Part shown: positions 4,706 through 43,660 of the stretch, in pieces
Numbering within the stretch: position 1 is the stretch's first letter
How the letters are laid out: each line of letters starts with the position of its first letter
Assembly: GCA_964016885.1 (NCBI GenBank)
Contig: OZ024742.1
Span: forward strand, 136,152,001 to 136,216,000
Direction of reading: 5' to 3'
DNA: 64,000 bases
DNA from: Eledone cirrhosa
Lineage: Eukaryota
Translations under genes and position numbers: made by a program
Notes under the pieces: model-generated
What the model was told of the DNA's origin: nothing
The model's database searches: none
What the model saw: only the letters and a program-made list of their open reading frames with translations

Positions 4706-5799
4706 ACTAAATAATAAATTACATATGATCAACTGTAAAAAAGCCAAAACTTGCATTTTGACTTGTATGTTATAATGTTGTTGATAGACGAGACCAATCA
4801 ACAACATTCCAACGTTTTCTACATATATAGACATAACAATACTCGTACTACATATTCCAATATGTTCTGCCCTTCTAACACGGTAGTGAATAGGTTGAGG
4901 TAATTTGAATTGCTACATCGATATACCACTCAAAGGACGTGAGAAGATCACCGGCAGATCTACTAAGTAAATAAAAGCCTCCGTTTCTGTAGGGTTGGGA
5001 ATGGGTGGAACCAATACAACATCGGACAAAGTTTCTTGGTATTTGATTAAACACATTTACATCCTGAGTTAAAATATCAACAAGATTGATTTTTGCCTGT
5101 GATCTGATCGTGATTGATAGAGTAAGTATTGCGTTCGATTTGATCGATCGGTCATTTCTCCATAATATGTGACATTGCATCTGTGTGAGAAACTATAGTG
5201 TTCTTCTAGTTTGGTTTTATTATAGTAAATTTAGTTGTGGGATGTACATCATTTTGATTTGTCATACTACCACACTGAAGATGCATACCCAATCGTCGAT
5301 TGAACATGCATTTACAAGGAGCCGTGTATAAGCAATAAAATGAGATATAAAATCATTAGTGGCTAACATCAAAATTCTCTATAAAATTCCACTCAAAAAT
5401 AAGAAGTGTATTTATGGAAGTTACAGAAATAGCAAAATGCAAGCTAAAGGATCACATCCAGTTTCAGCACAGGTGAAATTATCTATGAAATGTAACCGGA
5501 ATTAACTGCCGAATGCTTTTTTTAATCCGGCGCTGACAATATTATCAATTTTCCTATGACTCTTTGTAACCTACTGCAAAGCGCACAAACCACGTGTTAT
5601 CACTACCATCATTTTTTTTCTGAGGATGAGGTCAAGAAGTTCTTGAAAAGTTAATGGCCCAATGATTATTTTCCTAACTAAACACAAATGACTGATAAAG
5701 AAATATGGAAAATATTTAATTAAAAAAAGATTAAACGCGAACACGGGCAGTTTTCTTTCTTACAGAACATATTTGAAAGAATAGCTGTTCCCTATTGTT

Positions 5800-5945
5800 C
5801 CTGCTTGTCACTGGGTCATCAGACAAGATGATGACCTTGTGAGAAGCAGGCGAAACTCCAGAGTAACAAGACTCACTATTTAGCTTTAATAAAAGGAATA
5901 TTTAACCTCTACCTCGGTATTGAGTACTCTTTTCTCTTGGCCGTC
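5800..5945. mobile_element. Head-to-head hammerhead-bearing element (family D)
   Basis: Minus arm 5828-5800 reads tcttgt-CTGATGA-cccagtgacaagcagg; plus arm 5829-5871 reads TGATGA-ccttgtgagaagcaggc-GAAA-ctccagag-TA-acaaga; downstream gtattgagtac motif is shared with families A and B. Confidence 0.65.
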
Positions 5946-6573
5946 AAGTACATACGGATCTATATATACATACACACACACGCATATCTATACATACACT
6001 CACACATGTATATTTAATCATATATATATGTGCACATAATTATGTAATATAAGTATAATTACATATATATAAATATTTAAATGCAATTATACATATAATT
6101 AAATATAGAGTATAAACAATTAAATATATATAATTATGTATATATACATTATATTTACATGTAAGTTTGTGTGTTTGCCTGCATGTATTTATGTCGAGCT
6201 GATTATTATATATATTACTGTGTATCTGCGAGAATAGGTATGTATGTATATTTGTAGAGTATACTGAGGTAAGCTATAATCATTATGATAGTACCTATAG
6301 AAGAGAGGTGAGTGGAATGTTTTGCCTCCTTCGTTCTCTCCCTCTTTCTCTCTCTGAAGGAAAATATCGATGTGTGTGTCCCAATACAGCTAGCTAAACA
6401 CACACACATACACACACACACACAATCTGTATTTGTTTCACACTCACACAGTTTCTCTCTCTCTCTCTCTCTCCCCCCTCTCTCTCTCTATCTTCTCTCT
6501 CCAAGCACCTATGAAGGAAAATATCGATTTATGCGTGTGTGTCCCAATAGAAATAGCCGCTACTGCATTCACC

Positions 6574-20716: not shown

Positions 20717-20766
<50 letters not shown>

Positions 20767-20768
<2 letters not shown>

Positions 20769-20900
20769 AAAAGGTATGATTCCGATGGCTTGAGCTCTGC
20801 CGTCGGGATCATACCTTTTCCGATCACCCACTCTACTACCCTAAGTATTGTGTACTCTGGTGCGTTATGGTCCACCTGGTTCCTTACCACAATTCCATCG

Positions 20901-20903
<3 letters not shown>
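20767..20903 (+). mobile_element. Hammerhead-related element family B with terminal hairpin
   Basis: 23-bp arms ggaaaaggtatgattccgatggc / gccgtcgggatcataccttttcc around ttgagctct; conserved tail ending ggttccttaccacaattcc; (AT)n on both sides. Confidence 0.8.
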
Positions 20904-20938
<35 letters not shown>

Positions 20939-28453: not shown

Positions 28454-28496
<43 letters not shown>

Positions 28497-28567
28497 ATAT
28501 GTATATATGTATGTATATATATATATATGTATATATGTATATATATATATATATATGTATATATATG

Positions 28568-28602
<35 letters not shown>

Positions 28603-28684
28603 GTATGTATGTATGTATATATATATATATATGTATATATGTATATGTATATTTATATATGTATATATGTATATGTATATTTTA

Positions 28685-28715
<31 letters not shown>

Positions 28716-28822
28716 ATATATATATATATATATATGTATATGTATATATGTGTATATATATGTATATATATATGTATATATGTGTATATATAAGTATGTA
28801 TATATGTGTATATATGTGTATA

Positions 28823-28890
<68 letters not shown>

Positions 28891-29156
28891 ACGGCCATTT
28901 GCCAATATAATTTGTTTTTATTGATTTATTATTTTAAATCGAGACAGGCAAACTGTATTATTATTATTAGTATTTTTTCAATCTAGCTAACTTAGTCATT
29001 GAGAATACAAACACTTATAGGTTGGTATTAGTGTTTATCAATTATATTAATTTATATTAACTTGTATTACACGGCTCAGAAATACTTCTTTCTTTGAGCT
29101 ATTTCATTGTAAAGGACTGTTTGAGTTTAGAACTCGTTATTCATAATATATGTGTG

Positions 29157-29201
<45 letters not shown>

Positions 29202-29266
29202 ATATATGTATATGTATATATGTATATGTATATGTGTATATGTATATGTGTATATATATATAAATC

Positions 29267-29319
<53 letters not shown>

Positions 29320-29415
29320 CTATGTATATGTATATGTATATATATATATGTATATGTATATATGTATATATATATATATATATATATGTATATGTGTATA
29401 TGTATATATATATTT

Positions 29416-29453
<38 letters not shown>

Positions 29454-29454
29454 T

Positions 29455-29512
<58 letters not shown>

Positions 29513-29950
29513 TATGTGTGTGTATATATATATGTGTATGTGTGTATATATATGTGTGTATATATATGTGTATATATATATGTGTATATATATATGTGTG
29601 TATATATATATGTGTGTATATATATATGTGTATATATATATATGTGTATATATATGTGTATATATATATGTGTATATATATATGTGTGTATATATATGTG
29701 TATATATTATATGTGTATATATATATGTGTGTATATATATGTATATATATGTGTGTATATATATATGTGTGTATATATATGTGTATATATATGTGTGTAT
29801 ATATATGTGTGTATATATATATGTGTATATATATATGTGTATATATATATGTATATATATATATATGTGTGTATATATATGTGTATATATATATGTGTAT
29901 ATATATATGTGTATATATATATATATATGTGTATATATATATATATGTGT

Positions 29951-29987
<37 letters not shown>

Positions 29988-30010
29988 GTATATATATGTA
30001 TATATAATAT
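28445..30010. repeat. Compound AT-rich microsatellite arrays
   Basis: Two arrays (28445-28888 and 29145-30010) separated by unique sequence. Confidence 0.95.
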
Positions 30011-30038
30011 ATATGTATGCATCAAATAGGGTGTGGTA

Positions 30039-30268
30039 AAAAACTAGATGGACCAGAAGCCACCAGATTACTTAGGGTGGTAGAGTGGGTAATATGAACA
30101 GATTCAGGACCCCCACGGCTGGGGGTATATATATATATATATGAAACGATTCAGGGCAGATATATAGATACGAAACGGCAGGAACCTAGTCGTGGGGGTC
30201 CTGAATCTGTTCATATTACCCACTCTACCACCCTAAGTAATCTGGTGGGTTCTGGGCCATCTAGTTTT
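30039..30268. mobile_element. Family B element as a long inverted repeat
   Basis: About 80-bp near-perfect arms (30039-30119 / 30188-30268); right arm is preceded by GAAAcggcaggaacct and begins agtcgtgggggtcc. Confidence 0.8.
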
Positions 30269-30279
30269 TATATATATGT

Positions 30280-30519
<240 letters not shown>

Positions 30520-30598
30520 CATATATATACATATATATACATATATATATACATACTTATATATACATATATATATATATATATATACATATATATAC

Positions 30599-30660
<62 letters not shown>

Positions 30661-30984
30661 ATATATACACATATAATGTATATAAATATATATGTAATAT
30701 ATATATATATGTAATATATATCATCAACATCATCATCATTTAACGTCCATCTTCCACGCTTGCATGGGTTGTATGTATATATATATATATATGTATCTAT
30801 ATATATATATATGTATATATATATGTATGTGTATATATATATATGTATGTATGTATATATGTATGTATGTATATGTATGTATATATATATATATAATTAT
30901 ACATATTCACATACATATATCTATAAAATATATATTTTCACATACATATATCTATAAAATATATATATATACATATATATAATA

Positions 30985-31186
30985 TAACGAAGGAAATGTG
31001 GTAAGGAACCAGGTGGACCATAACGCACCAAAGTACTCAATACTTAGGGTAGTAGAGTGGGTAATAGGAAAAAGTATGACCCCGACGGCAGAGCTGAAGC
31101 CGTTTCGACGTTTATTTCTGGACTAAAAAAGAAATAGTCGTCGAACCGGCTTGAGATCTGGCGTCAGGGTCATACTTTGTCCTATA
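30985..31186 (-). mobile_element. Family B element with inverted partial copy
   Basis: Minus strand cgtc-GAAA-cggc-ttcagctct-gccg-TC-ggggtc plus family tail; inverted arm 31130-31185. Confidence 0.8.
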
Positions 31187-34247
<3,061 letters not shown>

Positions 34248-34467
34248 AAGGAACGATCGACTTTCGTCAAATTGGACCGAGGGAACAATGTTTCCGTTGG
34301 TCTTTCCAATTGCTAATACTATCTATCGGTGGCCGCTGCAGATAGAAGTAGCAACGTGAAATAAAGTGTCTTGCTCAAGGACATAACGCATCGCCTGGTC
34401 CTGGAATCGAACTCACAACCTTACGATTGCGAATCCAATTCTCTAACCGCTCAGCCACACGCCTTCA
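34248..34467 (-). mobile_element. SINE family 2, young subfamily
   Basis: Reverse complement closely matches 22389-22605. Confidence 0.9.
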
Positions 34468-34470
34468 CTA

Positions 34471-34809
<339 letters not shown>

Positions 34810-34828
34810 TTATGTATATATATATATA

Positions 34829-35455
34829 TGTGTTGGGTCCACTTCATTTCATCATCTACATTAATGACATTACTGACATCATCAAGCACAGCAACATAAG
34901 AATCTTCGGAGATGATTCCAAGCTCCAAAGGGTCATCAATGAGATGGTTGACCGGACTTGCCTTCAGTCAGGCCTACTGGCTTTTATCCAATGGGCAGAA
35001 AAGAATAATATGCTGTTGAATGAGGATAGATTTGAATTAATCCACTTAGGAAAAAAGGATGCCCCGAAACTACCATACTCTATCCCTTCGGGTGAAACTC
35101 TAGCGCATCTAACATCAGAGACCTGGGAGCAATTGTGGACAACAAAATAAGCTGGGCCACTCATATAAACAACAAAGTTGATATGGCCTGCAGAATGTGT
35201 TCCTGGATTCTCAGAAGTTTCCGGTCGAGAGATATCCACACTGATGTCCTTCTCTTCTCCACTTTTTCCCGACCCCACCTTGAATACTGTTGTCCCCTCT
35301 GGTCACCCCACACGAACAAAGTATCATGAAAGTTAAAGCACCCCAAAGGTCAATTACAAAACAGATAGATGGCATGACAGGCCTTAACCATTGGAGTCGA
35401 TTAGAAAAGCTCAAACATTATTCTCTCCAACGTCGCCGTGAGCGCTACATTTGGC
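34829..35455 (+). mobile_element. CR1/L2-group LINE reverse transcriptase fragment
   Basis: [14 protein letters not shown]...[10 protein letters not shown] (YADD-type motif)...[10 protein letters not shown]; RPHLEYCCPLWSP; [17 protein letters not shown]; several frameshifts. Confidence 0.92.
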
Positions 35456-37771: not shown

Positions 37772-37822
<51 letters not shown>

Positions 37823-37825
37823 GTA

Positions 37826-38136
<311 letters not shown>

Positions 38137-42084: not shown

Positions 42085-42127
42085 AATGCACAGACACACA
42101 TACACACAAACTCATATATATATATAA

Positions 42128-42290
42128 AACAAAGGAAATGTGGTAAGGAACCAGATGGGCCATAACACACCAGAGTACTCAATACTTAGGGTAGTAGAGT
42201 GGGAAATAGGAAAAAGTATGACCCCAACGGCAGAGCTCAAGCCGTTTCGACGGCTATTTCTGGAAACCGTCGGGGTCATACTTTTTCCTA
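42128..42290 (-). mobile_element. Family B element with short inverted arm
   Basis: Minus strand gacccc-gacggtttccagaaatagccgtc-GAAA-cggc-ttgagctct-gccg-TT-ggggtc plus tail nearly identical to 30985-31120. Confidence 0.8.
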
Positions 42291-43432: not shown

Positions 43433-43434
<2 letters not shown>

Positions 43435-43660
43435 TGATGATTTCTCACGAATGAAACAGTTCTAGTCCTGTAGAAGCTCTTCTATATTAAAACTTGTATA
43501 CTCTGCTATGTATTGAGTACCTTACTTACTGTGGTTACCTTCGATTCTAACCGGAATAAATTATATATATATAAGTGTATCCCGGGTTCAATCTGGGGTG
43601 ACCACGGTAAGTAGGGTACTCGATATTTCTCCCGAATGAAACAGTTCTAGTCCTGTAGAA
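43433..43660 (+). mobile_element. Family A hammerhead element plus rearranged second copy
   Basis: CTGATGA-tttctcacgaat-GAAA-cagttctagtcctg-TA-gaagctc (43434-43479), tail to 43555, inverted tail 43580-43625, then a second GAAA...ctgTAgaa half. Confidence 0.8.

Follow-up and report, generated by a model that had tools for sequence, protein, structure and literature searches.

A stretch of 64,000 nucleotides of the Eledone cirrhosa genome (the window) contains, close to its left end, two adjoining arms on opposite strands whose letters can be assembled into one hammerhead ribozyme, which raises the question whether this locus encodes a ribozyme that is split between two strands. The original prediction had read it in this way, for positions 5800 to 5945, as a property of a whole repeat family (family D). 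The letters of both arms are present as described, on the minus strand from 5828 to 5800 and on the plus strand from 5829 to 5871. The minus strand reads TCTTGT and CTGATGA, followed by a damaged stem II, and ends short of GAAA. The plus strand begins with TGATGA, which lacks C3, and continues with C, CTTG, a loop of 7 nt, CAGG, C, GAAA, CTC-CA-GAG, TA and ACAAGA (5866-5871). The stem I drawn across both arms is, as claimed, a perfect helix of 6 bp. The letters CTC-CA-GAG also stand where a loop III of 2 nt had been proposed, but this loop is nominal only, as hairpin loops require at least 3 nt. Likewise, the locus is real but the element does not end at 5945; its plus arm extends to 5959 and is followed by a TA-rich microsatellite (Table 1). 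The split ribozyme, however, is not real as a device, and the locus itself is therefore ordinary. With little doubt it is a decayed insertion of the Penelope-like element (PLE) type.

Table 1. Features of the locus and its surroundings in window coordinates; model positions refer to the family D profile, which was built from copies of the family.
Feature	Position	Strand	Remarks
Unrelated old repeat, not part of the element	5502..5796	+	about 70% identity to 27 other places; adjoins the truncated left arm
Inverted arm, truncated	5800..5828	-	model 520-550; 5′ strand of stem I at 5828-5823, CUGAUGA core at 5822-5816, stem II damaged
3′ part lacking from the inverted arm			in intact copies, the stretch of about 50 nt from GAAA to the short end
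Head-to-head junction	5828..5829	.	arms begin at model 521 and 528; no overlap called
Direct arm, hammerhead part without stem I 5′ strand and C3	5829..5871	+	UGAUGA, stem II, GAAA 5852-5855, short stem III, stem I 3′ strand
Predicted cut site of the direct arm	after 5865	+	
Spacer to the site of the short 3′ end of family D	5872..5901	+	short end at about 5898-5901; partner arms end at model 596-607
One-sided tail to the long 3′ end of family D	5902..5959	+	about 58 nt
Tail motif, predicted small bulged hairpin	5906..5925	+	2 substitutions in the window copy; common to other repeat families of the genome
TA/CA-rich microsatellite flank	5961..6150	.	usual target of family D

The copy in the window differs from the family D majority at 12 of 131 and at 3 of 29 positions (about 9% divergence). 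Positions 5700-5858, which include the junction, are identical in contigs of the runs X1 and X3, both from one sample that is possibly also the source of the assembly. The summed contig depth over the arm exceeds that over the flank by a factor of about 10,000, a figure that does not represent a copy number. The host genome comprises 3.0 Gb and is rich in microsatellites; for the window, the output of a generic repeat finder was dominated by (TA)n and that of Rfam by microsatellite matches to miRNA models. No hammerhead was found by Rfam at the locus, and an intact copy of the family yielded only a sub-threshold match (16.5 bits vs 48.5).

A first look at the genome returned 1,289 candidates for family D, and a second match on the opposite strand was present in 20 of the 40 places scored. 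Using a strict descriptor, the contiguous hammerhead could be detected at 240 places in the genome, compared to none for the reversed control, and the family therefore passed the check proposed with the original prediction, which had named absence of this motif from the genome as its refutation. These matches contain the core elements CUGANGA, GAAA and UH in type I order together with stem I, whereas neither arm is complete at the window locus. Thus, a hammerhead-type motif within a repeat family of head-to-head architecture is borne out. A hammerhead split across two arms is, on the other hand, not what characterizes the family: each arm is a truncated copy of one unit, and many loci carry the whole motif within a single arm. 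The complementarity at the window locus is only apparent: C3 of one arm was removed at the junction, and the 3′ half of the other arm is gone. Copies of family D mostly comprise only 85 + 145 nt. Of the 24 copies with an intact core, 21 are unpaired at the position that corresponds to 10.1/11.1 and none has a G-C pair there, and covariation in stems II and III did not exceed that of shuffled controls (158 of 500 reach the score), as is expected for dead copies of one family.

For an analysis of the ends, a pattern of 26 letters from the long end was used, which had 266 matches. Seventy of these loci were examined (the first 30 and 40 of rows 31-100, with preference for variants atypical of a composite element), of which 12 represented the composite element and were dropped, leaving 58 loci that include two near-duplicate pairs. 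An adjacent inverted arm was present in 28 of them, and in none of these cases was its end long (0/28). Twenty-four of the 58 begin within model positions 512-531, while three reach further upstream. The pooled junction rows (n = 68, including one spurious row and one locus counted twice) comprise 41 combinations of a long with a short end, 25 of a long with a clipped end and two others, but neither two long nor two short ends. Hence, every pair with both ends callable has one short and one long end (41/41), the tail being at one end only. Selection through the long arm underlies most sets, so that the 16 rows selected through the ribozyme provide the only fair test for a pairing of two short ends, which none of them exhibited. 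The composite element (L087, L101, L114, L081 and L082) has a constant flank, contains the family D tail only and lies beside a CT-rich array; it looks like a family D fragment spread by another mobile element.

The junctions between the arms are nearly all copy-specific. Among the 34 without added bases, 25 show an overlap of at least 2 nt (null 16%), and the other 34 of the 68 rows contain insertions, mostly of 1-7 nt. In the loci L058 and L086 both arms are at the 5′ limit and the loop between the arms is absent. The arm that extends further 5′ can be of either polarity (46 vs 13, with 7 equal). Divergence between arms amounts to 13.6% within a locus vs 15.7% between loci with the same loop variant, and in 35 of 36 pairs both arms carry the same loop variant. 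An arm begins precisely at the predicted site of cleavage in three independent loci (L031, L042 and L044); this could point to a cleaved template or merely to the 6-nt microhomology of stem I. Apart from these three, the histogram of 136 arm starts contains no pile-up at this site. The flanks conform to an AT-rich or (TA)n target, and target duplications are unreadable in such microsatellites. Some copies consist of a solo arm, and longer ones reach beyond the long end as well as further upstream.

Of all arm starts, 52 of 136 fall on model positions 518-522, with 518 being the A of a TTAGT that we take to be initiator-like. This 5′ limit is sharp and lies 3 nt upstream of stem I; the eight starts upstream of 518 comprise one spurious row, four short over-extensions and three real long copies. 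As the A of TTAGT is located 30 nt downstream of TATTTATA in long copies, the limit appears to be the start of the RNA. The TATA pattern is exact in only 10 of 21 long copies. The same TTAGT, preceded by a TATA-like box at -29, occurs in family B, which is unrelated; of 22 family B arms, 18 begin between -4 and +10 of the A. For a rotifer PLE repeat, a TATA 20 bp upstream of an initiator-like word is described (excerpt of PMC3846280). Alternatively, the TTAG at the limit could be a 3′ splice site, in line with the intron of Drosophila Penelope, which ends at helix I (excerpt of PMC4209133); a shared first exon upstream of the limit, however, was not seen in 87 arms. An extra G before the arm start was considered as a sign of cap copying and dropped, as microhomology with the inverted arm accounts for most cases.

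Palindromes of family B occur in the window at 30980-31190, 42120-42290 and 20765-20910 as well as in L017, L067, L081 and L223. Their arms contain only the half with GAAA, stem III and UC, and no CUGANGA was seen in the 200 nt upstream in a long copy. One family B palindrome is located inside a near-continuous (AT)n-type microsatellite of about 6.4 kb (window 28459-34829). A 31-nt piece of the upstream region of family D also occurs as a short tandem array (L169-L173; G000:C7 near 52,120,300).

A few bases past the short end lies the tail motif, whose predicted hairpin has only -2 to -4 kcal/mol and which recurs, with different loops, in at least three other families. A protein-coding reason for this motif was rejected because its halves lie in different frames across families. 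A second hairpin past the long end exhibits the same base and 2-nt bulge in L083 (-10.7 kcal/mol). It folds as predicted in one of the seven read-through copies found and is not the best fold in the other six, some of which may have failed through CpG decay. The hammerhead family C (window 37820-38010 and 43434-43570; L028, L109 and L119) has a head-to-head layout, short and long ends and the same tail motif, and it is likewise devoid of a G-C pair at the base of stem II.

With respect to the parent element, some family D copies extend about 500 nt upstream. In a few copies, the sequence continues past the long end and reaches a candidate ATG after about 75 nt more; two of these copies are partial head-to-tail tandems. 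An apparent continuation of this reading frame in L237 is in reality a junction into another repeat, so that the candidate ORF start comprises only about 10 codons. No reverse transcriptase or endonuclease gene of family D was found by walking along its copies, with the upstream walk ending in simple repeats and the read-through walk in the short ATG start, and a tblastn search with the protein of family F yielded no match beside family D arms. As no such gene is linked to the family, its membership in the PLEs rests on its ends and its layout. Two short PLE-like fragments had no Pfam match. A fragment with an IWYNP-like motif, presumably the one in the linker of PLE proteins, is located in L045 (1-350, minus strand) and has no Pfam match. 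The loci L230 (1390-1720, minus strand) and L231 (1420-1710) contain partial head-to-tail tandems, in which an arm is followed by about 85 nt of read-through and a second arm beginning inside the ribozyme. Their motifs are incomplete and no full tandem around an ORF was seen; they could be template-jump products or internal deletions.

Family F, a different and young PLE of the same genome, was used as an in-genome control with an ORF. It has 22,065 first-look candidates, (TA)n targets and a tail of about 55 nt, and its 3′ repeat contains a hammerhead. The protein of its 994-aa frame reaches only a sub-threshold match to RVT_1 (Pfam, E = 0.0016). Twenty-one elements were fetched, 14 of them with both ends callable, and these comprise 12 mixed pairs (two long by eye), one short + short and one long + long pair (p = 0.0065). 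The 12 of 14 inverted pairs with mixed ends were counted for the two-cDNA model set out below. Family F (L206:1242-4226 and L207-L227) is very abundant and autonomous, with an Asn/Thr-rich N-terminal part and a canonical minimal hammerhead, and is devoid of the ACTC/GAGT tail motif. Another abundant hammerhead repeat (L240-L268; 1,521 first-look candidates) has a tail related to that of family F.

Taken as a whole, the locus is best explained, and rather probably so, as a decayed mirror-image repeat that was made by a PLE enzyme from two cDNAs joined head to head. The reverse transcriptase-endonuclease of a PLE would cut both strands in (TA)n, and each cut end would prime one cDNA. The template would be uncleaved RNA, as the arms run through the predicted cut site. 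Each of two internal sites, located a few bases ahead of a small hairpin, would give rise to one cDNA; both cDNAs would run off at or near the 5′ end of the RNA, and end-joining by the host would link them via microhomology or a few added bases. The pairing of short with long ends, the pile-up at the A of TTAGT and the copy-specific microhomology junctions favour two run-off cDNAs over a strand that folds back and primes itself, and we judge the run-off route to be the probable one, by a similar degree as the explanation as a whole. In work with a purified PLE protein, both strands were cut and extended, synthesis started at two internal sites and uncleaved RNA served as template, with ribozyme mutations having no effect (excerpt of PMC11167929). 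Against the two-cDNA route, deletions in the centre of the palindrome after insertion would also give microhomology junctions, and the concordance of the arms fits self-copying, or later homogenisation, equally well. It is conceivable, at a little under even chances, that the stubs are fossil strong-stop products: from each side of the cut, one cDNA would have started just ahead of one of two hairpins close to the RNA 5′ end and extended as far as the transcription start, after which the two were end-joined in head-to-head orientation. If so, the inverted copy and the one-sided tail would be explained without antisense self-priming, and a template jump, comparable to strong-stop transfer in retroviruses, would be required for full-length copies.

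The main competitor keeps the same element and derives the palindrome from self-priming, with a strand that folds back and is copied and an endonuclease that resolves the product to a one-sided tail. Such self-priming on an antisense template has been proposed for head-to-head PLE junctions (excerpt of PMC3846280), and both the microhomology at the junctions and the concordant arms agree with it. Yet, a fold-back accommodates poorly the two loci with both arms at the limit and no loop, the freedom of either arm to reach further 5′, the bases added in half of the junction rows and the position of the limit at a sense-strand TATA/initiator-like pair in two families, and we regard it as rather unlikely. 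A non-LTR retrozyme, in which a small RNA circle arises by hammerhead cleavage and ligation and is copied by rolling-circle reverse transcription, would account for a type I hammerhead with short stem III, for the lack of an ORF among the copies searched and for the two partial head-to-tail copies, and retrozymes are described as non-autonomous PLE derivatives (excerpt of bioRxiv 10.64898/2026.07.22.740005). However, neither a full tandem array nor an arm longer than the unit was seen in the sampled loci, a circle does not impose the stop of the arms at the 5′ edge of the ribozyme, and 3 of the 58 long arms extend upstream, which makes this origin quite improbable. Even less credible is a DNA transposon of the MITE kind whose mobile form is already a palindrome; while short, palindromic and abundant copies in a TA context are what it would produce, the termini of family D are different sequences, the central junction is nearly always peculiar to its copy, and some copies are solo arms or extended upstream.

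A functional reading of the layout, namely that the arms yield two RNAs which form an active hammerhead in trans or that the arrangement serves a dimer partner, likewise has very little probability. It is possible to draw the RNAs of the two arms as a two-piece hammerhead that has a full stem I, but this structure has to be forced (-2.3 kcal/mol, compared to -13.4 kcal/mol for the best co-fold). For a read-through transcript, the predicted fold is a hairpin and not a ribozyme (-37 to -40 kcal/mol; -36.8 kcal/mol with z -6.6 for window 5800-5880). Furthermore, the junction is devoid of the upstream promoter-like block, and the break points vary from copy to copy. In 26 long arms that span the motif and were picked by their far end only, mismatches to the family amount to 20 of 246 (8.1%) in the core and to 203 of 2,224 (9.1%) at other positions (p = 0.72; CpG sites and one polymorphic column excluded), and the strict motif is intact on the long arm of only 1 of 56 loci picked by the far end. 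The core thus decays neutrally, any sign of function in place is absent, and the hammerhead is without a role at the window locus. It belongs to the parent element, where it would likely cut only as a dimer, if at all. The proposed dimer dependence is plausible for the parent motif, in view of the predicted duplex of two stem III segments (-7.2 kcal/mol; -13.8 kcal/mol for a natural palindromic variant), but it would require two copies on the same strand. Arms on opposite strands cannot provide such a partner on one transcript and are predicted to pair with each other instead. Dimer cleavage is published for the minimal type I hammerhead class (excerpt of PMC4209133) and is attributed to Lunse et al. 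in the review PMC6765202. If transcribed, the many palindromes of this kind would amount to built-in double-stranded RNA; octopus is reported to have an unusually high fold-back potential and A-to-I hyper-editing (excerpt of PMC5625713).

The inverted truncated copy, the one-sided tail and the (TA)n bias are published features of PLEs (excerpts of PMC8557442 and PMC3846280). According to these two papers, insertions of EN+ PLEs carry, like family D, a head-to-head inverted copy at the 5′ end, a one-sided tail and a (TA)n target, together with a hammerhead in the terminal repeat and a TATA about 20 bp before an initiator-like word. Their tails measure 30-40 nt compared to about 58 nt, and family D deviates by its copies of mostly 85 + 145 nt, by one sharp 5′ limit and by a reverse transcriptase-endonuclease gene that was not found. 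The Hydra clade of PLEs shares insertion in (TA)n and canonical hammerheads (excerpt of PMC8557442), while a placement in this clade needs a reverse transcriptase sequence, which was not found for family D. Stubs bounded at a transcription start, or family D itself, were not found described in the literature listings and papers covered by the search. PLEs are the closest mobile relatives of telomerase, and family D provides a natural record of how their inverted ends and tails form.

The minimal type I hammerheads of metazoan PLEs (Cervera and de la Pena 2014, PMC4209133) resemble the motif of family D in their type I order, the stem I of 6 bp, the very short stem III and the predicted need for a dimer. 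According to that paper, the G10.1-C11.1 pair is highly conserved in them; in family D this pair is absent, and the loop III of the majority is not a perfect palindrome. If the proposed origin is true, the parent ribozyme, which has a pyrimidine mismatch where this pair would stand, would constitute a further hammerhead variant. In Schistosoma, pairs of minimal hammerheads occur 100-700 bp apart on opposite strands (same excerpt of PMC4209133). Animal non-LTR retrozymes are similarly non-coding and PLE-related, with a type I hammerhead, but are defined in bioRxiv 10.64898/2026.07.22.740005 by tandem units that each have a complete ribozyme, whereas family D consists of inverted stubs and no such tandem units were seen in the sample of its loci examined. 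A further close parallel is PAc, the Poseidon element of Anolis (Frangieh et al. 2024; excerpt of PMC11167929), with two internal starts that define the tail, an AT-rich target, both strands cut and extended, and uncleaved RNA as template, as would also hold for family D. The ORF of PAc begins inside the ribozyme, whereas the candidate ATG of family D lies past the long end. For the in vitro system described in this paper, the fixed pairing of short with long ends and the promoter-like 5′ limit of family D make sharp predictions.
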